A DNA stretch of 64,000 nt from a virus. The DNA is taken from the IMG/VR virus record IMGVR_UViG_3300023181_000003, positions 1-64,000 of that record; one strand, 5' to 3'. A program made the position numbers and the translations under genes. The notes beneath the pieces are model-generated. The model was not told where the DNA came from and searched no databases. It saw only the letters and a program-made list of their open reading frames with translations. Below, piece by piece: positions 3,780 to 56,623 of this stretch. The stretch's first letter is position 1. Each line of letters opens with the position of its first letter.

Positions 3780-3980
3780 TTAAAATACAAATTCTGTATA
3801 AATCCAACCGTTTTGTTTTCCTGTATTGTCGTCCCATTCACCAACACATACATCATCTACATCACATACCAAAAGATCATCATGTACATGAACCCATCCT
3901 ACATGATAGGCGATTTCTCTCCAAAGTTCATATTGATCTTTACTGAAGTATGTTACTTTGCTCATTTTGTTTCCTTTCAA
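3780..3980 (-). CDS. hypothetical protein (first gene of leftward block)
   Basis: ORF track, 66 aa; AAAGGAAACAAA precedes the ATG; the antisense track ORF 3756..3995 is less plausible. Confidence 0.6.
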   Translation of the reverse strand: MKGNKMSKVTYFSKDQYELWREIAYHVGWVHVHDDLLVCDVDDVCVGEWDDNTGKQNGWIYTEFVF

Positions 3981-4022
3981 ATTTGTGATGTGTGATTGTA
4001 GATCAAGTGTGAAGTCTTATGT

Positions 4023-4040
4023 GTTGTATTTTCACTACAC
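4023..4040. promoter_or_regulatory. degenerate copy (opposite orientation) of the operator-like motif found at 40861 and 41341
   Basis: Reverse complement reads GTAGTGAAAATACAACAC; its 12 3'-terminal nt (AAAATACAACAC) are identical to 41349-41360 plus flank. Lies upstream of the leftward gene 3780..3980. Confidence 0.3.
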
Positions 4041-4096
4041 TATGTAAAGATTTGTAAAGTAGTGTAAATTATTCAGAAAGTAAGGGTAAATCCTAA

Positions 4097-4124
4097 TTGA
4101 CAAAATAGTGTTTTATGTTACAAT
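4097..4124 (+). promoter_or_regulatory. sigma70-type promoter (TTGACA, 16-nt spacer, TGtTACAAT)
   Basis: TTGACA at 4097-4102, TG at 4116-4117, TACAAT at 4119-4124. Confidence 0.55.
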
Positions 4125-4128
4125 AACA

Positions 4129-4619
4129 ACATAAATGCGGAAACTGCATCTCTAACATGGAATACACACATTGTACCATGAAATTGGAAAGTTTCTCGGA
4201 TTGTGTTGCGGTAAGTATCTTCTTTAAAACAAGGTGTAGACAGTGGGCATGATTTTAAAAGCCGTACACGTCGTGGAGACGGCAAAGGGTTAAGTAAGAG
4301 GTTGGAAGCTAAGATCAATGATGCTTCTTTCTTTTTCAGTGAGCCTGAACACGTAGGGAAGGATTCTAATGGATTCTTTTGAGTCACTGAACTGTATCTG
4401 TATGCTTGATCAATCTGCATACATCTAGCCTAAAGCTAGACAAAGACGGCTCCGGGGGAAATATCCTTGGTTGGTTTTGATTATAGTCTTAGATTCTGTA
4501 TTTCACATTTAAATTATGTGTTTGCAGAGTCTAGGGTAAACTGTATCTTAAAAACCCACCAAGGGAAATTATAGGTAACTAATATAATGAATAAGTATTA
4601 ATAAGATAAGGAGTCAATA
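4129..4619 (+). ncRNA. long ORF-free leader / candidate structured RNA (element A)
   Basis: ~490 nt between the promoter and the ATG at 4620 with no + strand ORF >=60 aa. Contains GNRA-type and long hairpins (e.g. 4488-4525). Its 3' 117 nt share an ordered motif series with 41207-41296. Confidence 0.35.
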
Positions 4620-5093
4620 ATGCCAAGTGTCTTTGAATGGTGGCTAGGTAGGCCAGAAGAAATAGTTATACCAAAACCAGAGAGAAAGAAATATACTGAT
4701 TTAACAGGACAGAGATTCACTAAACTACTTGTCCTAAACAGAATAGAATCAGATAAACACGTATATAAATATTTATGTCAATGTGATTGTAGTAATACTA
4801 AAGTTGTACTAGCACAGAATCTTAAAACTGGTAAAACTAAATCATGCGGATGTTTAAGAGAGTCTAAAGAGTGTTATTCTAAAATTAAACTAACACAAGC
4901 CCTTGTGCTTGAAAGATTTAATACTGCTCATGGAAACTTATATGATTATTCACAAGTTGTTTACAAAGGTATAGCAAATAAAGTGAGTATTGTTTGTTAC
5001 AAACATGGTGTTTTTATGCAAAGACCTGATAATCATTGGAATGGTGGTGGTTGTCCACACTGTTATAATGAAAATATTAAGAATAGATCATAA
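4620..5093 (+). CDS. homing-endonuclease-related DNA-binding protein (no nuclease motif seen)
   Basis: 157 aa. N-terminal module LTGQRFTKL...CQCDC...SCGC matches the repeats of the HNH-AP2 protein (6832). C-terminal module HGNLYDYS...CYKHG...GCPHC matches the repeats of the 49960 protein. GGAG 8 nt before the ATG. Confidence 0.7.
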   Translation: MPSVFEWWLGRPEEIVIPKPERKKYTDLTGQRFTKLLVLNRIESDKHVYKYLCQCDCSNTKVVLAQNLKTGKTKSCGCLRESKECYSKIKLTQALVLERFNTAHGNLYDYSQVVYKGIANKVSIVCYKHGVFMQRPDNHWNGGGCPHCYNENIKNRS

Positions 5094-5120
5094 ATATTTA
5101 TATGTATCCTCTAGTTTAGT

Positions 5121-5149: not shown

Positions 5150-5340
5150 ACTCTTATGTAAGTAAATAGTTACTTCGGAAATAAAGAATGCACTCAAGAT
5201 CGTTACATATATTGTTCCCTTGAGGCTCACATTGTTTTATTACAGTGTGTCGAATTAATGCAGGTAAGGTGTTTATGGATACACATTAGCCTTCCAAGCT
5301 TAAATAGATCGGCTCGGTACCGACTACCTGCTCCAAATAA

Positions 5341-5533: not shown

Positions 5534-5611
5534 AGCGGTGTAGTTCAGTCCGGTAGAACAGGGGTCTCATACGCCTCATGTCATGGGTTCAAATCCCATC
5601 ATTCGCAACCA
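5534..5611 (+). tRNA. tRNA-Met-like (anticodon CAT) with non-closing acceptor stem; possibly pseudogene or part of a larger composite
   Basis: Canonical D arm (GTTC/AGTCCGGTA/GAAC), anticodon arm (GGGGT/CTCATAC/GCCTC) and T arm (ATGGG/TTCAAAT/CCCAT), ending ..CATTCGC-A-ACCA. The adjacent 5' strand AGCGGTG does not pair with CATTCGC. Confidence 0.45.
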
Positions 5612-5728: not shown

Positions 5729-5812
5729 ACCGACTTCGCATAGAGGCCGATTGCACCTGTTTTGTAAGCAGGAATATAAACACCGTAAGTTCAAATCTTA
5801 CAGTCGGCACCA
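5729..5812 (+). tRNA. tRNA-like, anticodon TGT (Thr-type), encoded CCA, unusual 12-nt variable loop
   Basis: Hand fold: acceptor ACCGACT/AGTCGGC (A1-C72 mismatch); D arm GCAT/AGAGGCCGA/TTGC; anticodon arm CCTGT/TTTGTAA/GCAGG; T arm GTAAG/TTCAAAT/CTTAC; A-CCA at 5809-5812. Confidence 0.5.
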
Positions 5813-6831: not shown

Positions 6832-7689
6832 ATGCGTAAGTATAAACTAAAAGATTTAGTGGGAACTAAATTAGGTTTTCTAGAAATAATTGCTAGAGAG
6901 CAAGAAGCAGAAAATGATACAGCTTACACAGCAAAATGGAGAGTCCGTTGTGCATGTGGTGAAGAAGTTATTTATGATCATAGAATTCTAACATCTAAGA
7001 AAAAGTCAAATTGTGGATGTGGTATGCGTAGTGAAAAATACCTCCCTGGTAAACAATTTTCTAAACTAACTATAGTTTCAAATGGACCACCCCATCCGAC
7101 AACACAATCTCCGAGGGTTTTCTGTAGATGTGAATGCGGAAATCCTGAACTAACCTTAGTGCAGAAGAATAACTTAATCTCTGGTAACACCACATCTTGT
7201 GGTTGTGTAGGTATTGCAAGTCGAATAACTCATGGTATGTCTAGTACACGAACTTACCAGATTTGGGAAGGTATGGTTCGTAGGTGTTCTGTTGGAAGAG
7301 AAGAAGAGTTTCCTTACCATGCAGGGAAAGGAATTCGAGTTTGTAAAGAGTGGAATCCGAAGTTAGGAGGGTCTTTTGAGAACTTCTATAAGGATATGGG
7401 AGAAGCTCCTGATAATCTTTCTATTGATCGTATTCACAATGATAATAACTATTTCAAAGAAAATTGCCGTTGGGCAACAAATAGTATCCAAGGCTATAAT
7501 AAAGGTTTAGACCCAAATAATAGTTCTGGTAAATCTGGTGTTAGTTTCTACAAACAGAATAATAAATGGTCTGCTGAAATACATGTAGACGGACAACATA
7601 TCCGACTAGGAATGTTTGAATATCTGGAGGATGCTATCAAAGCAAGAGAAAAAGCAGAGCTAGTCTACTATGGTTGGAATAAGCAATGA
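6832..7689 (+). CDS. HNH endonuclease with AP2-type DNA-binding domain (homing-endonuclease architecture)
   Basis: 285 aa. Two N-terminal Cys-rich repeats (..C.CGE...CGCG; ..CRCECG...SCGCV), HNH motif DRIHNDNNYFKENCRWATNSIQGYN, and C-terminal AP2-like GVSFYKQNNKWSAEIHVDGQHIRLGMFEYLEDAIKAREKAE. GAGG precedes the ATG. Confidence 0.8.
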   Translation: MRKYKLKDLVGTKLGFLEIIAREQEAENDTAYTAKWRVRCACGEEVIYDHRILTSKKKSNCGCGMRSEKYLPGKQFSKLTIVSNGPPHPTTQSPRVFCRCECGNPELTLVQKNNLISGNTTSCGCVGIASRITHGMSSTRTYQIWEGMVRRCSVGREEEFPYHAGKGIRVCKEWNPKLGGSFENFYKDMGEAPDNLSIDRIHNDNNYFKENCRWATNSIQGYNKGLDPNNSSGKSGVSFYKQNNKWSAEIHVDGQHIRLGMFEYLEDAIKAREKAELVYYGWNKQ

Positions 7690-32160: not shown

Positions 32161-32315
32161 TTAATCTCTGATGAATCTGTAATTTTGTAATACAGATTAT
32201 CATCTTCTGAATAATATTTACAGAAATAATCTGCATCCACTTTAGAATCAAACTCTCTATAAAATACTTCCGTTACTTTCCCTAATGTAAACAATGTAAT
32301 TTCATATGTGATCAT
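32151..32315 (-). CDS. hypothetical protein (54 aa)
   Basis: Hand-translated MITYEITLFTLGKVTEVFYREF...; ATG overlaps the GNAT stop (ATGA). Confidence 0.4.
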   Translation of the reverse strand: MITYEITLFTLGKVTEVFYREFDSKVDADYFCKYYSEDDNLYYKITDSSEIKNK

Positions 32316-32692
32316 GGTACAGCCTTCACTTCCTGTTTATCCCAAAACTCTAAAGTACCTTTAGTGCCCTCAGAGCCCCAAAAGTTAACATCTGCATGTT
32401 TAGCTTTCATAGCTGAAACAAGTTTACCACCAATTCCATAATTTCTATATGATCGTCTGACAAAGATTTGTAAGTGATTGTCACACTTCACACACACTCC
32501 TACAGGATAATCAGCTAGAGTAGCAAGCATAATATCCTGATTACTCCCTAAACCATTTTTAATGATTGATTTTAAATCCTCTTGAAGATTCCAGCCCCTA
32601 ACAAACAGTACGTTGCTAAGAGCAATTTGTGCTAGTTGTTGGGGGTTTTCTTCGTTTAAGATTGTATTCTTTAGAATGTTATATGTTCTCAA
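32312..32692 (-). CDS. GNAT-family N-acetyltransferase
   Basis: 126 aa; QIFVRRSYRNYGIGGKLVSAM matches GNAT motif A (R/Q-x-x-G-x-G/A); TTG start in the track. Confidence 0.6.
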   Translation of the reverse strand: MRTYNILKNTILNEENPQQLAQIALSNVLFVRGWNLQEDLKSIIKNGLGSNQDIMLATLADYPVGVCVKCDNHLQIFVRRSYRNYGIGGKLVSAMKAKHADVNFWGSEGTKGTLEFWDKQEVKAVP

Positions 32693-32814
32693 TCTGGTAA
32701 CTCCCTGTAATCTCTTGAATTACAAATCTCACATACATACACTTCTTCACACCAGTCTCCATTGTCATTATCATGAAGATACTTCCATTTATGTGCACAC
32801 TTATAATCACTCAT
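32689..32814 (-). CDS. small zinc-ribbon-like protein (41 aa)
   Basis: Hand-translated MSDYKCAHKWKYLHDNDNGDWCEEVYVCEICNSRDYRELPD; stop overlaps the GNAT TTG start. Confidence 0.4.
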   Translation of the reverse strand: MSDYKCAHKWKYLHDNDNGDWCEEVYVCEICNSRDYRELPD

Positions 32815-32815
32815 A

Positions 32816-33139
32816 CTATTTACTTTCTCTTAAGGCTTCCATAGCCTCTTGCTTTGTTTTATAAATACCACCTAGCACAAAATCTTTCTTGATTTCACAC
32901 CATTTAGTTTTATATTGATTAAGACTAGAATATTTAGATTCTACAATCCATACACCATCACTCAATTCAAGAATACTCCATTCAGATGGTGCTTCAGCGT
33001 TAGGAGTCTTATTATTCTTTAAATATTCAATCTTGATTTGATTGAAACATTCATTACGTACATCTACAGCATGCTTTTGTTTTACTAAGCATCCTACAGA
33101 TACACAGACAATCAATAGGAAAGATAATATCCACTTCAT
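32816..33139 (-). CDS. secreted/lipoprotein-like hypothetical protein
   Basis: 107 aa; N-terminal MKWILSFLLIVCVSVGC signal-like segment. Confidence 0.6.
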   Translation of the reverse strand: MKWILSFLLIVCVSVGCLVKQKHAVDVRNECFNQIKIEYLKNNKTPNAEAPSEWSILELSDGVWIVESKYSSLNQYKTKWCEIKKDFVLGGIYKTKQEAMEALRESK

Positions 33140-33315
33140 TTCATTCCTTTAAAGTAATCAGCACATTGTTGATCTGTGAGGCTTTCCATATGATGTCTAA
33201 CATCAGTGAGATTTGCTCCATGAATAGTGAATACTTTCTTCAGTGAATCTTTTGACAGGATAATGTTGATTACATTACCTTCTTTAGTGATTGTATATGA
33301 ATATGGAAGATTCAT
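33136..33315 (-). CDS. hypothetical protein (59 aa)
   Basis: Hand-translated MNLPYSYTITKEGNVINIILSKD...; ATGA overlap with the downstream gene. Confidence 0.45.
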   Translation of the reverse strand: MNLPYSYTITKEGNVINIILSKDSLKKVFTIHGANLTDVRHHMESLTDQQCADYFKGMK

Positions 33316-33504
33316 TTAGCACCTATCATGAATACAGGCTTCATAACCTGCGTTCCATCCATCCACATGGCCTTCATCATATAATCCCTGTGCAAAATTA
33401 TTTACAGTAGGGATAATTGAATGATAAATCTCTTCAGCTTGTTTATAGCTGACGCTCGAATTATCAAGACGAATAACTCTAATGATTTCTTCAATGTCTA
33501 GCAT
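33316..33504 (-). CDS. hypothetical protein
   Basis: Track ORF 33316..33594 trimmed to the ATG at 33504 (AAGGAATTAAC upstream), avoiding overlap with the upstream ORF. Confidence 0.55.
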   Translation of the reverse strand: MLDIEEIIRVIRLDNSSVSYKQAEEIYHSIIPTVNNFAQGLYDEGHVDGWNAGYEACIHDRC

Positions 33505-33505
33505 G

Positions 33506-33679
33506 TTAATTCCTTTCTTTCTTCCAATTAAGTATAATTGCAGGAAATTCATAACAAATACTGTTAATTGGTTTCCCACTTGTAATACCTTCAATGATCT
33601 TCCAAGACATGTATGTTACAAGGTCATCGTGTGTCCATTCATTTAATGGTGCTGAAATTCCTTTGATACTATTATTCAT
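33506..33679 (-). CDS. hypothetical protein
   Basis: Track ORF starts at TTG 33691; ATG at 33679 follows the upstream stop (TAAAAATG). Confidence 0.5.
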   Translation of the reverse strand: MNNSIKGISAPLNEWTHDDLVTYMSWKIIEGITSGKPINSICYEFPAIILNWKKERN

Positions 33680-33681
33680 TT

Positions 33682-34293
33682 TTAAGTCCAAAGTCCTGAA
33701 TAATATTTACCAAATAGGCGGAAGCCATTTTCCCTACGTTTTCGACGTTCCCTATACTCTTCAATAGTCTCACTATCGTACTTCCATTCATACTTATCTT
33801 CCCAATCAGGGGCGTGTGCCCAAATCATTTCATCAATAATGTACTCCCAACGAGCAAAAAGAAAATCATCAGTATCCCATTCATTCTCTTTCGGTGGTGC
33901 GCTAGTTGAACGAATATCCTCAGGAACATCTTCATCATCTAAATTAATAGGCGCACCATGATTTACTTCTTTTAGTTTAAGAAGTAGTGGATGAATAATT
34001 ATTGATAGTGTGTTGTCAGCACTCCAAGTATCATAATAATCAATCTTGACTTTTACTTTACGTTTTTGAATGGTGTAAAATTTTGCACATAGTTTACTAA
34101 GTAGAGATTCATTACCATCTTTATTTTCAGCTAACCATTTACCAAATTCGTGCACAGAGTCATCTTCATATTTATCTTTCCAAAATAGAATTTTCTCTGC
34201 GATCTGATATGGCCCGATCTGGTTTGCATATGGTCCAATGTAAACTTTCATAATATTCCTTTCGTTTAGATAATGAAGTGTAGCATACAACAA
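33682..34293 (-). CDS. hypothetical protein
   Basis: ORF track, 203 aa; downstream of the DNA polymerase gene. Confidence 0.65.
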   Translation of the reverse strand: MLYATLHYLNERNIMKVYIGPYANQIGPYQIAEKILFWKDKYEDDSVHEFGKWLAENKDGNESLLSKLCAKFYTIQKRKVKVKIDYYDTWSADNTLSIIIHPLLLKLKEVNHGAPINLDDEDVPEDIRSTSAPPKENEWDTDDFLFARWEYIIDEMIWAHAPDWEDKYEWKYDSETIEEYRERRKRRENGFRLFGKYYSGLWT

Positions 34294-34320
34294 CTGGTGT
34301 GGTTGTTGTATTTTTGTTAA

Positions 34321-36420
34321 TTAGTGAGTCTCACACCAATTTTTACCAATCTTACTCTCACCTTTTAATTCAACTTTAAATTTTAAATATTGGCCTGATT
34401 TCTCAATTGCTTTAGTGACCATGTTTCCAATTTCTTGTGCAACTTCTTCATCACATTCAAACTCTGCCTCGTCGTGTTGATAGCATACTCGCCTAACGAT
34501 ATAACCTTTATAACTGTAATAGGGTTTACGATCTTTCCACTTTAGTCCACCTAACCACATATCCATAAAGCACAGAGCATAATCCATAGCAATGCCGCCT
34601 GCACTTTGAAAAATTGTATTAAGTAGTGCTGATTTCTTTCTTGTAATAAGAATTCTACCATCAATAGCAGGAAGATGTTTCTTTTTGCCTTTTGTTTCCC
34701 AATACTTTTCTAACTTATCTTTTAGTAACTTAGTTCCCTGATTAGCAGCCCAAAATTTCTCAGATATTTCTTGACCTCTTGATTCTGGTAATCCTGCTGT
34801 TGACGCAATTTTAGGTGGACCGGCACCATACATTGCTGCGTAGTACACGTTCTTACTTCTATCCCTGAAAGGCTTAAATTTTGGATCATCTTTATTAAAA
34901 TCTTCTGATGTGATATCAAAATCTAACAATTGATCTTCATAGACACTTTTAGCTGTCTTTGAGTGAACATCACCACTAAGCAATTCTCTAGCAGTTTCAC
35001 CATCATCATAGGGGAATGTGTAGTGCCCTTGTACACGACCCTCCAAAGCCGCAGCATCAGCCGCAGCAATAAGCATACCCTCTTCAGCAATCCATAAACT
35101 TCTAAACTCATAACCTAAAAGAACTTTAGGGCTTGCCTTCGGACAATTTACGATAGTCCGATGTTTTTGTCTGTGTGTTGAGGCAATGCCTGTTCTACCT
35201 GCGCCAATACGTCCATCCATTTGTAGCCGTGGATTATTTATCCAAGTATTCAAAACAGATTGTCTGTTTCGTAAACTAAGCCATTTAACAACCTGTTTGA
35301 TAATGTCACCTTGCATAGCTTCGAGATTCACACAAAGTTTCTGAGTCTCTTGAATTTTAGGAGAGGTAGGAATTAATTTACCACGTTGATCACGCATAGG
35401 CTTACCATTTTTATCTTTCTGGTAATTCCATAAAGTTGGTTTCCAGCCTAATGATAAGAACCAATCTTTCATCTGATCTTGATTACCCATTTCCATAGGT
35501 AACTTAATATCTAGAATTTGTCCTGGCTCAACCTCATAAGTCTTTCCATAAAATTCCCATTGGCCGAAAGATTCCTTACCATCATGCTTTTCAACAAACT
35601 TTTCCCATGATGATGAAAATGATCCATCCTTCTTATAAGGCTTTGCAGGCATTGTGTAGAATTTCTCTTCACTTTTCTTTAAAGCCCTAGGAGGTAATTT
35701 AGGTTCTACCTCTGCACGAATCTCTTCCATCATCACAACAATCTTTTCAGCTAAATCATGAGCAAACTTCTGATCAAACTTCCAACCTGTTAGCTCTTGA
35801 CAAGACATTAGAAAGAAAGATTTCTGTCCACACTTATATGCATCAGTAATTTCAAATTCTGAACCATACACTTCTAACCATTCATTTTTAAGACTCTTAT
35901 ATGCTTTGATGTTAACTTCTACGTCTCGTTCACAATAAACATCCATCTCTGGATGCCACTGTTTAAATTCCTGTGCTTCAGGATCACTAGCTTGAATAAG
36001 ACCTAATTCAATTGCTTTAGACCTCCAATCAATTTTCTCTAAACCTTCTTGTTCACCAAAATACTCAATACTGTGTCCTGGCCTGTCAGGGTTTAAAAAC
36101 ATTGACAAATAGAAACTATCCACATATTGCACATCTTGGTTATTAAATTTATCAGGACCGACTGTAATTTCAATTCCTAAAATAAACATAAACATTAAGA
36201 AGTCATAGCCAAGACCAAAGTGAGCAATAAGCCTTGGTTTTTCATATTGGGAAATGAATTCTACGAGTTTCTGTTTTGCCTGTTCATCTTTAAAAGGATT
36301 TACTTTTAACTTTTCTCCTGATTGAATATGTGTTGCACAGATTGTCCAAATTAATGTGCTATCAAAAAGAAGTCCATCGCTCTCGATATCTAGAACAACC
36401 TCATCAATTTCTTCTTTCAT
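34321..36420 (-). CDS. DNA polymerase, family A, with 3'-5' exonuclease domain
   Basis: 699 aa; ExoI LDIESDG; pol motifs DAAALEGR (A), RDRSKNVYYAAMYGAG (B) and YQHDEAEF (C). Confidence 0.9.
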   Translation of the reverse strand: MKEEIDEVVLDIESDGLLFDSTLIWTICATHIQSGEKLKVNPFKDEQAKQKLVEFISQYEKPRLIAHFGLGYDFLMFMFILGIEITVGPDKFNNQDVQYVDSFYLSMFLNPDRPGHSIEYFGEQEGLEKIDWRSKAIELGLIQASDPEAQEFKQWHPEMDVYCERDVEVNIKAYKSLKNEWLEVYGSEFEITDAYKCGQKSFFLMSCQELTGWKFDQKFAHDLAEKIVVMMEEIRAEVEPKLPPRALKKSEEKFYTMPAKPYKKDGSFSSSWEKFVEKHDGKESFGQWEFYGKTYEVEPGQILDIKLPMEMGNQDQMKDWFLSLGWKPTLWNYQKDKNGKPMRDQRGKLIPTSPKIQETQKLCVNLEAMQGDIIKQVVKWLSLRNRQSVLNTWINNPRLQMDGRIGAGRTGIASTHRQKHRTIVNCPKASPKVLLGYEFRSLWIAEEGMLIAAADAAALEGRVQGHYTFPYDDGETARELLSGDVHSKTAKSVYEDQLLDFDITSEDFNKDDPKFKPFRDRSKNVYYAAMYGAGPPKIASTAGLPESRGQEISEKFWAANQGTKLLKDKLEKYWETKGKKKHLPAIDGRILITRKKSALLNTIFQSAGGIAMDYALCFMDMWLGGLKWKDRKPYYSYKGYIVRRVCYQHDEAEFECDEEVAQEIGNMVTKAIEKSGQYLKFKVELKGESKIGKNWCETH

Positions 36421-36438
36421 CCATTCCCCTTACATTAT

Positions 36439-38247
36439 TTAAAAACTTACATTACTTCTAGAATGATAATCATCTAAATCTACTACTTTACGGGTTTGAG
36501 TGTCATATACCCACGCTCCAGCTTCACCAGTATCTCCATTACGACATTTCGGAAGTCTAACATATGTTGTGTTTCTTTCTACAAAATCTTCTGCCATTTT
36601 ATCACGGTCAATAAGAATATTGTAAGCAGCAGATTGAACAAAAGTTCCAGAACCTAAAGCATCATATTCATTTATTTCACGAATTTTCCCATCCTTATCA
36701 GGATTAGGTTTTCTCGTATGCAAGACGTTCACAATTGTAATCCCACTCTTAACCATTCCTTTTTGGAACTTTAAATGACTCTCTTGTGCTTCAATAGGCA
36801 TACCTCGAAGGATATCGGTTAGAACATCAATTACAATCAGTTTACATCCATGAGACTTAACTAATTTTTCCATTTGTTTCTCTAACTCTTTAATATCACC
36901 ATCCCTTTCATCTAGAATTGCCCATCGAGGTTCTCCATTTTCATCAACAAGAAGATCATCATACAATTCCATCACTTCTGGTTTTTCTAGATAATCAATG
37001 ATTTCTTCACCATCACCCATTCTAACAAGATTTTTCTCTAAATGAATAGATAACATATCTAATGTATACTGACCGGCTGTAGCCTCTAAAGAAACAACCC
37101 CTGGTTTTACTGGTGAATTAAAAATCCAATGATACATCATATTGTTCACATGACTAGATTTACCAACAGAAGTATTACCAATTATATTAACAATACGTCC
37201 TTGCTGTGGTCCGCCACCCATCATAGAGGATAATTTCTTCATATATGGTGGAAGAGGAATTCTCGGCCTACGTAATTCTTCTTTAACGTCTTCCATTAAA
37301 CCTGCTGAAGAACGAATACCTGTGTTTATTACAGGTTTAGCATTATAGAAGTCTCTTAGGAATTGTTTTTCTTTACCGTCATTAAGCATTTTGTTTGGGT
37401 CTTTACCAGACCATGTAACAACCTTAACTTTTTCCTGGGGTAGAACTTTTATAATTTCTTCTACAGCTTTTTTACCCGCCTCATCATTATCCATTCCAAT
37501 AATAATATTTTCAAACTCATCACAGAATTCATACTGTGTAGCAATCTGTTTAGCTGCATTACCTTCACCACATGTCGGGGACACTACAGCAATAGAATCA
37601 TATCCTTCTTGACCTTTACTGATTTGATAATCGCGGAGCATTTGATATGCTGCAACTTTATCTTCTTCACCACCTACAATTAGAATATATTTTCCACCAG
37701 CTTGAAATCTCACTTGTCCACTAAGTTCACATGATAGACCAGTAATTCCACGTTTACCATATCGAAAATCTTTAGGGTGATTTCGACATTTATATCCTAC
37801 AACTTCACCATCTTTTGTTTCTGGATAATAACGTGCTAAGACATTTCCTCTACTATCAACCTTAGCCATGTGTCCATAAAATTTACTGTACTCATCTTTA
37901 ATACCACGATAATTGTTTGTATTATATGTTAGTGTCTTACGAAAGTCTTTAATATCTTCTTTACTCATTGGAGGGATTTTGGAAACCTTTGTGTATTTTG
38001 GTTTCTCTTTTACAATTCCGTCTTCAATTCCAAGTAAATCGGCTAGACTAGTATTAGCTACTTCATTTTTACTAAAATACTGGCAGCAACTAAAGCAGTA
38101 GCCATCATATTCTACATTACCCTCATCATCTTCATGTTCATAAACTTTCAATGCATCTGAGCTAAAACATTCCTGTTTTCCATTAACTTCATTTGCAATA
38201 CATTCAAAATTATTATTTAGTAACTGTCCGCTTTCTTTTGCACTCAT
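36439..38247 (-). CDS. bifunctional primase-helicase (T7 gp4-like)
   Basis: 602 aa; Cys-rich N-terminal zinc-binding region, TOPRIM acidic motifs (GGEEDK, GMDNDEAGKKA), Walker A GNTSVGKSS, Walker B-like LIVIDVL. Confidence 0.9.
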   Translation of the reverse strand: MSAKESGQLLNNNFECIANEVNGKQECFSSDALKVYEHEDDEGNVEYDGYCFSCCQYFSKNEVANTSLADLLGIEDGIVKEKPKYTKVSKIPPMSKEDIKDFRKTLTYNTNNYRGIKDEYSKFYGHMAKVDSRGNVLARYYPETKDGEVVGYKCRNHPKDFRYGKRGITGLSCELSGQVRFQAGGKYILIVGGEEDKVAAYQMLRDYQISKGQEGYDSIAVVSPTCGEGNAAKQIATQYEFCDEFENIIIGMDNDEAGKKAVEEIIKVLPQEKVKVVTWSGKDPNKMLNDGKEKQFLRDFYNAKPVINTGIRSSAGLMEDVKEELRRPRIPLPPYMKKLSSMMGGGPQQGRIVNIIGNTSVGKSSHVNNMMYHWIFNSPVKPGVVSLEATAGQYTLDMLSIHLEKNLVRMGDGEEIIDYLEKPEVMELYDDLLVDENGEPRWAILDERDGDIKELEKQMEKLVKSHGCKLIVIDVLTDILRGMPIEAQESHLKFQKGMVKSGITIVNVLHTRKPNPDKDGKIREINEYDALGSGTFVQSAAYNILIDRDKMAEDFVERNTTYVRLPKCRNGDTGEAGAWVYDTQTRKVVDLDDYHSRSNVSF

Positions 38248-38265
38248 TTATTTCCCTTTTTATTG

Positions 38266-38484
38266 TCATAACCCATTATTGATCTTCCTCCGATTTACAA
38301 AATAATCGTGTAACTCTTGCTTTACTCTAGCAACTTTCTTTGAATAAATAAGATCATCTTGTTTCTTTATTGTAAGATAATCCCATTCAACTCTGTTAGG
38401 AGTTTTTGTAAGCCTTTCTATATTCCAAGATTCTTTTGCCTTTCTTATATCATCTTCTGTCACTTTCAGCGAGGGTATTTCCAT
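38266..38484 (-). CDS. hypothetical protein
   Basis: ORF track, 72 aa; operon context. Confidence 0.6.
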   Translation of the reverse strand: MEIPSLKVTEDDIRKAKESWNIERLTKTPNRVEWDYLTIKKQDDLIYSKKVARVKQELHDYFVNRRKINNGL

Positions 38485-38703
38485 TTAAATTCCTTCTAAT
38501 CCATCTTCAAAATCATCAGCAGAGCCTACAAGAATACCTTCTTGATAAGCTTCCTGCACTAGTCTATTTTGTTTACTAAGAACATTGAAAACATCTTGCC
38601 ATTCATCACAACCTCTAGGATCATAGTTCCTTTCTTTTCTTCTGTCTTCATATCCTGCTGTATAAAGTTTATCAATTAAATAATAAATATCTTCTGTGTT
38701 CAT
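38485..38703 (-). CDS. hypothetical protein
   Basis: ORF track, 72 aa; abuts neighbours. Confidence 0.6.
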   Translation of the reverse strand: MNTEDIYYLIDKLYTAGYEDRRKERNYDPRGCDEWQDVFNVLSKQNRLVQEAYQEGILVGSADDFEDGLEGI

Positions 38704-38927
38704 AGACTACTCACAATCTCAAACCTCTGAAACTCACTCGTTTCACCAATGTGATAATAAACAGCAAGCATAGCATCAGCTAAACGATATGTTCCTTTAA
38801 ACTTCTTATCATCTAGGCCAATCTTCCGCATGGAATATCCAACATGTTTGTTGATCTTCTTACGAATCTTTGGTTCCTGTAGATTATACACCTTTTCTAG
38901 ATTGTTACATTGCCAAACTAGGTACAT
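38700..38927 (-). CDS. hypothetical protein
   Basis: ORF track, 75 aa; 4-nt overlap with the downstream gene. Confidence 0.6.
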   Translation of the reverse strand: MYLVWQCNNLEKVYNLQEPKIRKKINKHVGYSMRKIGLDDKKFKGTYRLADAMLAVYYHIGETSEFQRFEIVSSL

Positions 38928-38928
38928 T

Positions 38929-39099
38929 TTAATTCTCCTTAATAAGTAGACTAATTAGATATTCTTTTTGAAGTTCAACCTCTTCTTCCAAGAGTTTAAC
39001 AGGGCTACCATAATACCAACCACATTCATACTCGCCCAATAGTTGAATTATAGTCTGTTCAAATTTATCTACAACAGAATAGGCATCGTCATAATTCAT
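38929..39099 (-). CDS. hypothetical protein (56 aa)
   Basis: Hand-translated MNYDDAYSVVDKFEQTIIQLLGEYE...; GGAGG upstream of the ATG. Confidence 0.45.
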   Translation of the reverse strand: MNYDDAYSVVDKFEQTIIQLLGEYECGWYYGSPVKLLEEEVELQKEYLISLLIKEN

Positions 39100-39100
39100 A

Positions 39101-39337
39101 TCAAACCTCCTTCATACTTTGATTAATAAGTTTTAGCATAAATTCATTCTCATGTTTTAGTCTTAGGTTTTCTGCATTAGATTTACTTAATTCAACATCC
39201 AGCTTTGTGCAAATATCTACTAAGTCTGCATATTTATTAATCCATTCCTTGTCATTTTCTGTCCACCTAATAGAAGGCTTTCCAGCAGCCTCCCATGCTG
39301 AAATAACATTACAGCCTGTTGAAGTTTGCCAGCCCAT
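39101..39337 (-). CDS. hypothetical protein
   Basis: ORF track, 78 aa. Confidence 0.6.
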   Translation of the reverse strand: MGWQTSTGCNVISAWEAAGKPSIRWTENDKEWINKYADLVDICTKLDVELSKSNAENLRLKHENEFMLKLINQSMKEV

Positions 39338-39338
39338 A

Positions 39339-39905
39339 TCAATCCTTCTTCATGTATTTATAAACTTTAACCATTTCAAATTCTGGCTCTTTAATGGAAT
39401 ATAGATTAGGCCAATCTTTGGCATTGCTCCAATGATAGCCATGTCCACATTCTCCCATTGTAACGTATTCTGCGCCACCAGCACCTTGCCACCATGCCTT
39501 ATCCTCAAGAGCTACTTCACCATCACTAATTTTAATAGTTTCAGGCTTAACACGTAGATGAAATTGTGTATTAGCTCCAATCATTCTTAGCACCCAATTT
39601 GTATCTTTTACATCACCCCAAGGCTCACCCGCATCTACACGAAATTGGATAGCCCCATCATCAGCAATAGCTTTTAGGATTTCACTTTTGTTGTAGTTTA
39701 TTTCTAAAGATTCTTTTGGAAAAACTTGTTCAATTAAATCTTCATCATCTTCTTCACCATTATAGTAATGACCAGAGGATGTATAACAAAGTACATCTGA
39801 TTCGTAAGGATATTTAGTATAATCCACACAGTGCTTAATAATTTTTACAATTTCACCCTTACGATTTTTATAAATACCACCAACTTCTAGCTTAATTTCA
39901 TTCAT
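39339..39905 (-). CDS. hypothetical protein
   Basis: Track ORF 39339..39953 trimmed to the ATG at 39905 (AAGGAGAATGTT upstream), which removes overlap with the upstream ORF. Confidence 0.6.
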   Translation of the reverse strand: MNEIKLEVGGIYKNRKGEIVKIIKHCVDYTKYPYESDVLCYTSSGHYYNGEEDDEDLIEQVFPKESLEINYNKSEILKAIADDGAIQFRVDAGEPWGDVKDTNWVLRMIGANTQFHLRVKPETIKISDGEVALEDKAWWQGAGGAEYVTMGECGHGYHWSNAKDWPNLYSIKEPEFEMVKVYKYMKKD

Positions 39906-39921
39906 AACATTCTCCTTTTGT

Positions 39922-40110
39922 TTAATTCTTCTCCACACAACGTGAACGATCATCTGTAGCTACGCCAAGTTTATTTCTAGCTTTCTCACAAGCCACCACT
40001 GTAGCATATTCTCCGATTGGACGCCAATCATGTTTTACTCTCTCATTATAACAAGCACCTTGCCCGTTGCAAGTCATAACAATCACTGTCCATAGATATA
40101 AAATAGTCAT
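39922..40110 (-). CDS. small Cys-rich exported protein candidate
   Basis: Trimmed to the ATG at 40110 (GGAGGAAACAGA upstream; ATGA overlap with the upstream gene). MTILYLWTVIVMTCNGQGACYN.. has a hydrophobic N-terminus. Confidence 0.5.
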   Translation of the reverse strand: MTILYLWTVIVMTCNGQGACYNERVKHDWRPIGEYATVVACEKARNKLGVATDDRSRCVEKN

Positions 40111-40514
40111 TCTGTTTCCTCCAGTTTTGGTCCTGTCAACCAATTATAAAGCCTCTCAGCATCTTGGAAAACTTCCCAAGCCTCTTCTTTCGTGTCCATA
40201 AATGTAAAGTCCTCATCATATAGATGGTTGTAATCACTTCCCACTTTAACACACGTCACCTTTCCATCATACATTGGTTTTGACAAGTGAGAGGGATAGG
40301 AATGGAAAGGCATGATTGTAGCAGCTTCTTGCCACATATCATTAGAAGTGAAAGCTTCAAAGTGTGGATGTGTAGGGTAAATATATGCATATACATTCCA
40401 CCTGTTTGAACCATCATGGTCAAATTCATATTTCCCTACAGTGTAGTGATAAACTTCTACAAGAAAGTTATTTCCACGGCTGTGCCACACATTTTTCTTT
40501 TGCCAATTAATCAT
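40107..40514 (-). CDS. hypothetical protein
   Basis: ORF track, 135 aa; AAGGAAACAA precedes the ATG. Confidence 0.6.
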   Translation of the reverse strand: MINWQKKNVWHSRGNNFLVEVYHYTVGKYEFDHDGSNRWNVYAYIYPTHPHFEAFTSNDMWQEAATIMPFHSYPSHLSKPMYDGKVTCVKVGSDYNHLYDEDFTFMDTKEEAWEVFQDAERLYNWLTGPKLEETE

Positions 40515-40621
40515 TTGTTTCCTTAATCAAATTTAAGCCCCTAGGAGGCTGTTAAAACACTTCAAGCACCTACCCTACTACTTTAGTAAATTAAGGGGCT
40601 TTTAGAGGCTTCTGGTGGGTT

Positions 40622-40789
40622 TTAGAACGTGTCGCTCTTTACACTCTCAAGTAAATCTTGAAAATTGGAATATACAATATCCGCCCTCTTATGGTCGCTA
40701 AAGGATTCACTATCCGCTAACCTCCAGTATTCTTGTCCTAGGTTAAACGCAGATTTAAGCATCTTTTCTAGTGTAATCACATCTGTCAT
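40622..40789 (-). CDS. hypothetical protein (55 aa), first gene of leftward replication block
   Basis: Hand-translated MTDVITLEKMLKSAFNLGQEYWRLAD...; AAAGGAAGAGT precedes the ATG. Confidence 0.45.
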   Translation of the reverse strand: MTDVITLEKMLKSAFNLGQEYWRLADSESFSDHKRADIVYSNFQDLLESVKSDTF

Positions 40790-40860
40790 ACTCTTCCTTT
40801 CATTATAAAAACAACATTATTCTGGCACACATATAGAAATATAGCAAGAATAATTACACT

Positions 40861-40880
40861 ACTAGTTGTAAAAATACAAC
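40861..40880. repeat. operator-like 20-mer ACTAGTTGTAAAAATACAAC (copy 1) containing palindrome GTTGTA-N4-TACAAC
   Basis: Exact 20/20 repeat of 41341-41360; lies between divergent promoters. Confidence 0.55.
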
Positions 40881-40906
40881 AAAATGCAAATATATTTTAA
40901 CAAAGC

Positions 40907-40935
40907 ATGAATTTAGTGAAATCTTGTGTTATAAT
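40907..40935 (+). promoter_or_regulatory. extended -10 promoter (TGtTATAAT)
   Basis: TG at 40927-28, TATAAT at 40930-35; weak -35. Confidence 0.5.
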
Positions 40936-40941
40936 GTCATT

Positions 40942-41340
40942 TCACACTGATTATGTTTGTGATGCTTGCTTCGTGTGAGCATTGTAGCATACGTTAGTGT
41001 GATCGTCTAGGGTGTTTTTGGGTAAACCGTCTTTTCCTTAGATTAAAGAACAAGTAAAGACTAGATCATGTTCAAGCTGTGGACTCGTGAAGGAATAACA
41101 GTGATTAGACTCCATGCTAGGAGGAAATTCCAAAGGTGTTGCGATTGCATTGTAACAACACCCGTGCATCTATAGAAAGATGTTCCATGTTTACATGGCT
41201 GTTAATGGCTCCGGGGTTGATTCTCTTAGTCTTGCAGATGTTTGAGTTTTTCAGATTAAGTTCTGAGGGACTCGTTCGTCTGTAATTTCACCAAGGTTGA
41301 TATAGTAATACATATTGTCAAGTAGTTAATTAATATAGAT
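40942..41340 (+). ncRNA. ORF-free transcript region / candidate structured RNA (element C)
   Basis: ~400 nt between two promoter/operator copies, with no ORF >=60 aa on either strand. 41207-41296 shares an ordered motif series (GGCTCCGGGG, TTGATT, TAGTCTT, hairpin, CACCAAGG) with 4448-4564. Confidence 0.35.
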
Positions 41341-41360
41341 ACTAGTTGTAAAAATACAAC
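41341..41360. repeat. operator-like 20-mer ACTAGTTGTAAAAATACAAC (copy 2)
   Basis: Exact repeat of 40861-40880. Confidence 0.55.
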
Positions 41361-41366
41361 ACAAAC

Positions 41367-41395
41367 TATCTTAAATGTTACAACTGGTGTATAAT
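41367..41395 (+). promoter_or_regulatory. promoter-like element (TATAAT 41390-41395)
   Basis: TATAAT about 29 nt downstream of operator copy 2; poor -35. Confidence 0.4.
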
Positions 41396-52823: not shown

Positions 52824-52847
52824 ATAGGGCTTAGTGCCCTATTTTTG
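52824..52847 (+). terminator. rho-independent terminator
   Basis: ATAGGGC-TTAGT-GCCCTAT followed by TTTTTG. Confidence 0.6.
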
Positions 52848-56128: not shown

Positions 56129-56129
56129 A

Positions 56130-56306
56130 ATGAAAGCAAAAGAAAAGAACTCTGTCCTAGATGCAATTGAATCAGATAGTTTTGAATACGCATTTGTATA
56201 TTACTCTCATTTTAAAGAGATTAAAGATGATGAGTTTCACAAACTACGTGAAGAATACTTAAAAGCTAGAGAACTTCTAGCTGATTACATCGGTTATCAA
56301 ACTTAA
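56130..56306 (+). CDS. hypothetical protein
   Basis: Track TTG start 56118 moved to the ATG at 56130, right after the upstream stop. Confidence 0.55.
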   Translation: MKAKEKNSVLDAIESDSFEYAFVYYSHFKEIKDDEFHKLREEYLKARELLADYIGYQT

Positions 56307-56315
56307 GGATTAAAG

Positions 56316-56516
56316 ATGGATAAACCAAAAGTACATTTTATTCTAGAACATGATTTATTTAATTTTCTAGAAGTGGGAAAGAAAGCCTCTGTTGTAGCTC
56401 TAGACCATCCACGTCTAGGGTGTACACGAGTGTTTACATCTCGGATTATCAGTATTAATTATGAATATAAATCATTCGAGACGTTGAATAGTGTTTATGT
56501 TGCATCGAATGATTGA
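56316..56516 (+). CDS. hypothetical protein
   Basis: ORF track, 66 aa. Confidence 0.55.
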   Translation: MDKPKVHFILEHDLFNFLEVGKKASVVALDHPRLGCTRVFTSRIISINYEYKSFETLNSVYVASND

Positions 56517-56534
56517 TGCATAAAAACAACACTA

Positions 56535-56575
56535 AGCCTTACAATTGTAAAAAGTTGTAAGGCTTTTTCTTTTTG
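56535..56575 (+). terminator. rho-independent terminator
   Basis: AGCCTTACAA...TTGTAAGGCT 10-bp stem followed by TTTTTCTTTTT. Confidence 0.7.
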
Positions 56576-56584
56576 TGAAAGCTG

Positions 56585-56593
56585 TGATATGAT
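56585..56593 (+). promoter_or_regulatory. extended -10 element TGaTATGAT
   Basis: Same TGnTAnnAT pattern as the other promoters; sits between the terminator and gene 56624. Confidence 0.35.
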
Positions 56594-56623
56594 AGCTACA
56601 TCGCAACAAAGGAATGAATCATC

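Follow-up and report, generated by a model that had tools for sequence, protein, structure and literature searches.

The window considered here comprises positions 1 to 64,000, in nucleotides (nt), of the IMG/VR virus record IMGVR_UViG_3300023181_000003, and is part of an uncultured tailed-phage genome of about 94 kb. An identical large terminase is encoded on an ENA metagenome contig of 94,248 nt; the closest large terminases of GenBank phages, those of Pseudomonas PAK_P1-like and Otagovirus-like myoviruses, are 43-44% identical. The G+C content of the window is about 36%. Structural genes occupy the + strand at 7933-32068, followed by a - strand gene block (32312-40789) and, from 41424 onward, by a + strand replication/nucleotide-metabolism block. 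There are two divergent junctions in the window, near 4000 and near 40800. The subject of this analysis is the leader at 4097-4619 (A), together with a second element at 40942-41340 (B), with which the original prediction had linked it; the proposed location of both at divergent (strand-switch) junctions is confirmed.

On the sequence evidence, A is a real structured leader RNA without a catalogued family, probably of the phage early-leader or 5' untranslated region (UTR) kind. Its parts are given below with the genes that follow it; copy counts of motifs cover the 64-kb window of the ~94-kb genome, and L101 and L102 are contigs of a sister phage, considered in the next section.

4097-4124, + strand: promoter, with TTGACA (4097-4102), a 16-nt spacer, TG (4116-4117) and TACAAT (4119-4124), giving the extended -10 TGtTACAAT
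4130-4619, + strand: untranslated leader RNA of ~490 nt; no conserved open reading frame (ORF), fold z = -3.4 over the whole 491 nt of A, no Rfam match
4130-4350, + strand: 5' half of the leader, with small hairpins at 4135-4149 and 4156-4180; z = -0.45
4399-4423, + strand: hairpin e, UGUAUGC, 11-nt loop, GCAUACA, from the centroid fold
4424-4440, + strand: hairpin f, UCUAGC-CUAAA-GCUAGA, from predicted folds
4448-4458, + strand: hub motif GGCUCCGGGGG, in the window only here and at 41207, conserved in L101/L102
4452-4482, + strand: terminator-like hairpin CCGGGGGAAAUAUCCUUGG (4452-4470), then UUGGUUUUGAUU; probably not a conserved terminator
4465-4564, + strand: long irregular hairpin of 37 pairs, with closing helix CCUUGGUUGG/CCACCAAGG (4465-4474/4556-4564)
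4557-4564, + strand: CACCAAGG motif, on the + strand of the window only here and at 41289; its CACCAAG part is kept in L101/L102
4608-4622, + strand: ribosome-binding site AAGGAG (4608-4613) and ATG of gene 4620, a stretch identical in L102
4620-5093, + strand: first gene, 157 amino acids (aa), DUF723 (PF05265) with homing-endonuclease DNA-binding modules
5260-5335, 5535-5607 and 5729-5812, + strand: cluster of three tRNA genes, transcribed in the same direction as the leader

Promoter, coding potential and folding of the leader

The promoter matches at 11 of 12 positions and carries the TG of an extended -10 element; with both strands scanned, it is the top sigma-70-type match in the window, confirming the claim that the best promoter of the window precedes the leader. 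From the sequence, transcription would start near 4130. An inverted repeat at 4033-4064, CACTAC...GTAGTG, with two copies of TGTAAAG between its arms, lies 33-64 nt ahead of the -35 element and could be a regulator-binding site; TTGTAAA is also present in a 21-nt repeat at B, described below.

The proposal that about 490 nt follow this promoter without a plausible ORF is borne out, there being no + strand ORF of more than 35 aa between 4129 and 4619 and none conserved in L101/L102. An antisense 100-aa ORF (4118-4420), which had been considered not to be a gene, indeed has no Pfam match and no counterpart in L101. That the region encodes a small protein, be it this antisense ORF or a 35-aa TTG-initiated ORF at 4467-4574, is extremely improbable. 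In its favour, GGGGG lies 8 nt ahead of the TTG at 4467, and the GCT CCG GGG frame gives A-P-G-x-I-x-L-V in both A and B, with three synonymous differences; that frame, however, has no start codon before 4467 in A and ends after four codons in L101/L102 (GCT CCG GGT AGA TAA), and the sole ATG-initiated frame in L101 is another one. A small-protein reading of GGCTCCGGGG was rejected because the frames through GGCTCCGGG are not the same in B and L101. A hok-like toxin reading of A was also rejected, since no small hydrophobic ORF with a ribosome-binding site, as expected of a type I (hok/sok-like) toxin-antitoxin system, is present in A or L101/L102; such a system would pair a folded mRNA of ~400 nt, in which the ribosome-binding site of this ORF is sequestered, with an antisense RNA. 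Overall, the sequence supports the earlier view of A as a transcribed-looking structured non-coding region, not a missed gene.

The structural signal is not evenly distributed. It is carried by the 3' half, 4351-4619, which has a z of -4.0 (a value of about -4 can be reached with one or two strong hairpins) and is the most negative among 150 windows of 300 nt covering the initial 22 kb (background z = -1.0 +/- 1.3). By contrast, the 5' half, 4129-4350, is ordinary. Thus, the claim of a structured leader stands for the 3' half and not for the 5' half, although every hairpin originally listed is present in minimum free energy or centroid folds. Elsewhere, the strongest folding signal seen (z = -5.9) is in the gap at 56129-56623, where it is explained by small ORFs and a canonical terminator; a region of ~850 nt in the - strand block (38248-39100), with no ORF of at least 80 aa, folds ordinarily (z = 0.1 and -1.1).

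Within the 3' half, hairpin e has counterparts in UAAGAA-UUUAU-UUCUUA at the aligned place in L101 and in GCAUCU-AUAGAA-AGAUGU in B (41166-41183). The counterpart of hairpin f in B is CCAUG-UUUA-CAUGG (41185-41198), and its place in L101 is taken by CUUGC-UUUA-GCAAG, with a two-sided A-U to U-A change that keeps the pair. Candidate partners of the hub are the GGAGUC of the ribosome-binding site (4610-4615), CCUUGG (4465-4470), GAGCC (4343-4347) and CUCGG (4194-4198); the long-range pairings with GAGCC and CUCGG are those of a two-sequence consensus fold, and the pairing of the GGCUCC of the hub with GGAGUC has an ensemble probability of ~0.64 in A. The long hairpin, which stops 55 nt before the start codon, has in its interior a 13+6-bp stem and a CACAU/AUGUG tip; the originally listed stem CUUAGAUUCUG/CAGAGUCUAGG with this tip is among the hairpins present in the folds. 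The L101/L102 equivalent of the terminator-like hairpin reads GGGUAGAUAAC(C/U)C then AAGCUCAAGG, without a U tract; judged on this comparison, the 4452-4482 hairpin is probably not a conserved terminator. The product of gene 4620 matches PHROG HNH-endonuclease families (2e-18 to 1e-11), and no catalytic domain was recognised among its Pfam/PHROG matches.

The sister-phage homologue and element B

Database searches gave a single relative, with 77% identity, for the 61-aa protein encoded immediately before A; it is on contig L101 (879 nt). For the 157-aa downstream protein, a relative with 96% identity is encoded on contig L102 (896 nt). The two contigs overlap, and together give the homologous leader of a sister phage, behind a TTGACA-17-TGTTATAAT promoter. 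The leaders are only ~50% identical over ~450 nt, although the ribosome-binding-site region is identical, such that the leader diverges far faster than both flanking genes. Islands are nevertheless kept, i.e. hairpins e and f, GGCUCCGGG, the long hairpin, UGUAUCUU and CACCAAG; elsewhere the alignment is near random. The long hairpin of L101/L102 has 34 pairs and a sequence unrelated to that of A, and the single C-to-U difference between L101 and L102 changes a G-C pair to G-U in a small hairpin. The search of relatives thus gave one true homologue, L101/L102; the shared motifs are absent from all other relatives, including L002, L001 and L023, in the same slot.

The layout of A and L101/L102 is also that of B. 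In all three, hairpin e is followed after 0-2 nt by hairpin f, after 7-8 nt by GGCUCCGGG and after 10-30 nt by the long hairpin; 3-9 nt later comes CACCAAG, and then A+U-rich sequence. The features of B are as follows.

40927-40935, + strand: promoter of B, extended -10 TGTTATAAT, from a promoter scan and the sequence
40942-41340, + strand: structured non-coding element B; z = -4.5
41067-41198, + strand: helices a-f of B
41207-41216, + strand: GGCUCCGGGG
41232-41285, + strand: long hairpin of B, 22 pairs
41289-41296, + strand: CACCAAGG

The core of B (41026-41200) matches positions 6709-6877 of the relative L002 (nhmmer and blastn, E 8e-10 to 1e-6), where it sits behind the junction promoter upstream of the terminase, that is, in the slot syntenic to A; hence both slots accept the same kind of RNA. 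Among the 34 pairs of seven hand-aligned helices, 22 are identical in B and L002, two differ on one side, ten differ on both sides and are still paired, and none is broken. Given these ten compensatory changes, and recurrence of the core in L002, B is, on comparative sequence grounds, a genuine and portable structured RNA. A four-way alignment of B with L002, L001 and L012 gave no consensus fold, and the L001/L012 type may or may not be related to the B type.

Two further features of B were observed. An exact 21-nt direct repeat, ACTAGTTGTAAAAATACAACA, with the dyad core TTGTA-AAAA-TACAA, is present at 40861-40881 and 41341-41361, 480 nt apart, so that B lies exactly between the copies; each copy is upstream of an extended -10 (TGTTATAAT at 40927-40935 and TG-TATAAT at 41388-41395), and the copies look like operators or a duplicated promoter module. 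There is also a 49-aa GTG-initiated ORF at 41136-41285 with a strong ribosome-binding site, AGGAGG (41119-41124), and the transmembrane-like sequence FTWLLMAPGLILLVLQMFEFF; it is not kept in the L002 RNA, where the frame stops after five codons.

The proposal that A is related to this element 37 kb away was based on five shared motifs in the same order. The motifs are present as described, with GGCTCCGGGG at 4448 and 41207, TTGATT, TAGTCTT/CTTAG, and CACCAAGG at 4557 and 41289 in the same order in A and B, but only the first is statistically unusual. This G+C-rich 10-mer, GGCTCCGGGG, amounts to 23.5 bits at 36% G+C, occurs twice in the 64 kb, with one copy per element, and was reached in 8 of 2000 shuffles. 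A local (Smith-Waterman) alignment of 4129-4619 with 40942-41340 did no better than chance (score 26; shuffles 21.7 +/- 2.4, with 33 of 500 reaching 26), and higher scores are obtained with ordinary windows of the genome. For the chain of shared k-mers, the unweighted result is marginal, being reached in 42 of 1000 shuffles and in 33 of 626 genome windows; with weighting by information content, 204 of 2000 shuffles reach it and significance is lost. A covariance model (R1) made from the single sequence of the 3' module of A scored B at 11.6 bits, i.e. noise level; since it also missed the true homologue L101, this score is uninformative. In favour of the proposal are the layout and two motifs; the alignment is at chance level, and the k-mer chain is marginal or not significant. 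The motifs that A and B share (GGCUCCGGG and CACCAAG) are, however, islands kept between A and L101/L102, which makes kinship with B plausible. The homology of A and B is unproven and their kinship, albeit plausible, statistically thin; common descent or common function of their 3' domains is likely, but not demonstrated.

Exchange of the slot among related phages

The relatives L001, L002 and L023 are 93-98% identical on both flanks of the slot, the common left flank including the promoter and the first hairpin, GUAGAG-AAAU-CUCUAC. Between the flanks are three unrelated blocks with sharp boundaries (L001 6140-7055, L002 6677-7674 and L023 4419-5551), each of which combines an RNA of 370-420 nt that folds well (z = -2.6, -3.9 and -4.6 for the L001, L002 and L023 leaders) with one or two genes, those of L001 and L002 being T5orf172/MUG113 nuclease-like. 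The junction has retained 335-1300 nt of non-coding sequence in most relatives; the pairs of such gaps that are detectably related are L001 with L012 (nhmmer E = 1.5e-9) and L034 with L005. In all five leaders that precede a gene, the longest hairpin comes last and ends 27-55 nt ahead of the start codon, with 37 pairs in A, 34 in L101/L102, 31 in L002, 47 in L001 and 24 in L023, although by pair count alone hairpins as long as these are reached in 0-32% of shuffled leaders.

Exact-pattern scans of IMG/VR for the B core and the L001-type core gave no contigs beyond the set already compared. Close terminase relatives in public assemblies number 324. A terminase scan gave mostly duplicates in JGI metagenomes and nothing in GTDB genomes, and scans by genes adjacent to B (DUF4406 and guanylate-kinase-like) gave only unrelated phages.

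Several observations concern individual relatives. A 63-nt piece of the L023 leader end recurs in L002 after the T5orf172 gene (7564-7626). L103 has an ORF-poor stretch of ~750 nt (3836-4590) that follows a TTGACA promoter and separates early genes from the packaging module; it matches no Rfam family and resembles none of the other leaders. The junction gaps of L034 (~2461-2583) and L005 (~4703-4828) contain a conserved 40-41-aa ORF with a strong ribosome-binding site and the shared motif W-I-D-x-N-R-G ... S-R-x-A-F-I. In L109, an 80-aa gene (4868-5110) upstream of the terminase of that phage has the Pfam domain Acb2_Tad1_hairpin, of the anti-CBASS/Thoeris sponge type.

It may be that A is an abundant trans-acting non-coding RNA, a decoy or sponge in phage-host or phage-phage conflict, under diversifying pressure; this is considered unlikely, though it accounts for several observations. 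The leader evolves far faster than both flanking genes, and is replaced wholesale inside nearly identical flanks in L001, L002 and L023; the B core is found in different genomic slots in the window and L002; the genes behind B need no B transcript, as a second promoter follows it; and all variants fold better than shuffles, with z of -2.6 to -4.6. On the other side, the RNA has neither a conserved terminator nor a defined 3' end, there is no candidate target or partner, and it shows no similarity to Rfam families, including 6S, tRNA-like, ROOL and GOLLD RNAs. Moreover, the swapped blocks include the neighbouring gene, so that the turnover may be driven by the gene and not by the RNA. In its widest form, the proposal, which is likewise doubtful, would be that A and B belong to a clade-wide, uncatalogued class of portable structured RNAs of ~400 nt behind the strongest promoters, exchanged as cassettes, often with a homing-endonuclease-like gene, and diversifying faster than their flanks through trans roles in conflict, as decoys, sponges or immunity determinants. 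If this were true, a large, fast-evolving class of RNA would be added to the phage conflict systems, with concrete sequences to test.

An opposite reading of the exchange is that the slot is a hot spot where recombination, or the traffic of homing endonucleases, has left a mosaic spacer. The promoter and ribosome-binding site alone would then have a function, with the hairpins being incidental or simply shielding the untranslated RNA from Rho and nucleases. The sharp swap boundaries in L001, L002 and L023, the endonuclease-like neighbours (T5orf172/MUG113 in L001 and L002, DUF723 in A), the lack of a structure signal in the 5' half of A and the weak A-B alignment statistics are all consistent with such a spacer. 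It is nonetheless quite unlikely, in that most relatives of a compact phage genome have retained 335-1300 nt of gap, all variants fold well, the B core has ten compensatory changes with none broken, and islands are kept between A and L101/L102 in an otherwise near-random background.

A proposed cis-acting operon leader and known systems

Comparison with catalogued RNAs gave no assignment for A. At Rfam 15 gathering thresholds, the whole window yielded tRNAs only, of which that at 5535-5607 was called by Rfam only and the tRNA-Gly at 5260-5335 by ARAGORN only. At a permissive E-value, 3950-4700 gave chance matches only (e.g. Tombus_5, 17.9 bits against a threshold of 43). Searches of B, L002 and 16 related loci gave no leader RNA match. 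The families covered include tRNA-like RNAs, 6S, ROOL, GOLLD, HEARO, the group I intron, riboswitches and leaders, and in relatives these searches did recover tRNAs as well as true group I introns, which lie within structural genes. The introns are at 16798-17075 in L023, 12126-12462 in L012, 9727-9972 in L010, 11249-11502 and 19129-19421 in L006, and 8999-9324 in L035; no group I intron was detected in the window. BLAST against GenBank phages gave no match for A, B or the L023 leader, and A had none among plasmids.

The placement of A and B had been said to recall cis-acting antitermination RNAs such as nut or put sites. A processive antitermination RNA of this type would, while nascent, modify RNA polymerase to read through terminators or Rho sites, here across the long untranslated leader, the tRNA cluster and the 28-kb structural operon. 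The put RNA of phage HK022, of ~70 nt, has two stem-loops with one unpaired base between them and acts on RNA polymerase without protein factors. As with putL/putR of HK022 and nutL/nutR of lambda, A and B would be two related cis elements, each just downstream of a diverging promoter at the head of a long operon, and the paired small hairpins e and f, 0-2 nt apart in A, L101 and B, are like the adjacent stem-loops of put, though this is a resemblance only. The module is portable, the untranslated leader and tRNAs would be exposed to Rho, and canonical terminators (52824-52842 and 56534-56565, with a 13-bp stem then a T run) lie 11-15 kb downstream of B.

By contrast, several findings count against antitermination. 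A nut site of the lambda type has a boxA beside a short boxB hairpin and works with an N-like antiterminator protein encoded by the phage. No boxA (GCUCUUUAACAA or CGCUCUUA, an E. coli consensus that may not be that of the host) was found within three mismatches in 4129-4619; boxA-like matches number 98 in the window against 95.6 +/- 10.7 by chance, and the one in B is at chance level. Rfam gave no match, and between 4600 and 24000 the + strand has no convincing intrinsic terminator, the only candidates being 5-7-bp stems inside genes; no intrinsic terminator was found in B. The small early proteins by both junctions have no Pfam or PHROG match, N-like proteins being too short or divergent to rule in or out by such means. 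Compared with put and nut, A and B are several times larger, have no boxA or boxB that was found and no terminators immediately downstream, and their motifs are missing from L002, L001 and L023, which have other RNAs in the same slot. With neither a boxA nor a convincing downstream terminator, the suggestion gained no positive support, and antitermination is improbable.

An origin-like role has also to be considered, with one transcription-primed replication origin per divergent junction and an RNA hybrid forming near the A+T-rich stretch after CACCAAGG. ColE1 RNA II and the R-loop origins of T4 are the models for such transcript-primed origins, and A resembles the ColE1 RNA II pre-primer in being a structured RNA of ~500 nt from a sigma-70 promoter; a G run is functionally important in RNA II, and in both A and B a strong promoter is followed by structured RNA (~400-450 nt), a G run (CCGGGGG) and an A+T-rich stretch of 45-90 nt. 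Both lie exactly where transcription and GC skew switch strand, but the skew merely tracks gene orientation and is hence uninformative. Neither iterons nor boxes of the DnaA type were noticed, the motifs are confined to particular lineages, and exchange together with an endonuclease gene in relatives would be unexpected for an origin. Unlike in ColE1, no antisense regulator, RNase H or origin features were identified in A, and the context is a phage genome. As it stands, an origin would be a very improbable reading of these sequence features.

The favoured reading, to which somewhat less than even confidence is attached, is that A is an untranslated, cis-acting 5' leader of its operon, combining an RNase III-type hairpin with possible masking of the ribosome-binding site. 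Its 3' domain would act in cis on its own transcript, with the long duplex of ~20-37 bp as a double-strand-specific (RNase III-type) processing and stability site, and processing would detach a 5' non-coding RNA from the message and tRNA precursor behind it. Through its GGCUCC, the hub may mask the GGAGUC ribosome-binding site of the homing-endonuclease-like first gene, which would hold down translation of gene 4620 in spite of transcription from the genome's strongest promoter. A 3' domain of this kind would also stand behind the promoter at the other divergent junction (40942-41340). Consistent with this proposal, an irregular duplex of at least about two helical turns, as looked for in an RNase III site, is present just upstream of the first gene as a candidate cleavage site. 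The exchange of the leader as a block, often with the next gene, argues that the RNA is a self-contained module and not filler. RNase III hairpins are present just upstream of the first gene in the early leaders of T7 (R0.3), lambda (N leader) and SP82, and translation of phage homing endonucleases, such as I-TevI of T4, is restrained by RNA structure.

A number of points weigh against the proposal of a cis-acting leader. Long unbranched hairpins of such pair count also arise in 5-32% of shuffled leaders, so the argument for processing depends on position and recurrence, and not on the strength of a single hairpin. The pairing of the hub with the ribosome-binding site is not predicted in L101/L102, where the best partner probability is 0.14, and B has no matching hub-partner site downstream; masking therefore cannot be the shared function of the motif. 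B has its own second promoter behind it, for which a free-standing RNA is a better fit than a leader, and the covariation for A itself comes from two sequences.

Half a kilobase of non-coding sequence behind the best promoter is rare in compact phage genomes, and here a clade of uncultured phages of ~85-94 kb keeps such a slot, with different well-folding RNAs in it. If the RNA only tunes its own operon, A would be one more early leader with a processing hairpin, a known theme. What is unexpected is that such RNAs are exchanged block by block and that B is portable. The B core, with its ten compensatory pairs from two phages, and the pair of A and L101/L102 are ready seeds for RNA family models.

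Among known systems, the restraint of I-TevI is similar in that upstream RNA can sequester the ribosome-binding site of an endonuclease-like gene that follows a strong promoter. In A, however, the masking would be long-range (~160 nt), is predicted with a probability of 0.64 in one phage only, and concerns a gene without a recognised catalytic domain. Structured RNAs from phage 5' UTRs are common in virulent phages (PMC10914365); those of virulent Pseudomonas phages, identified by ONT-cappable-seq, are like A in being promoter-proximal, structured, non-coding and confined to close relatives, but are mostly shorter than 250 nt and set by premature terminators, whereas A, known from sequence alone, has ~450-490 nt and a lone terminator-like hairpin that is not conserved (PMC10914365). 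In comparison with the T7 A1-gene 0.3 leader (R0.3), the lambda pL-N leader and the SP82 early RNA, A differs by having no sequence similarity, by its conserved G+C-rich hub and by its block exchange between close relatives. It shares with all three a strong host-type promoter, a few hundred untranslated nt and a long imperfect duplex a few tens of nt upstream of the first ribosome-binding site; in the three known cases processing at the duplex alters the translation and stability of the first gene, as is proposed for A.

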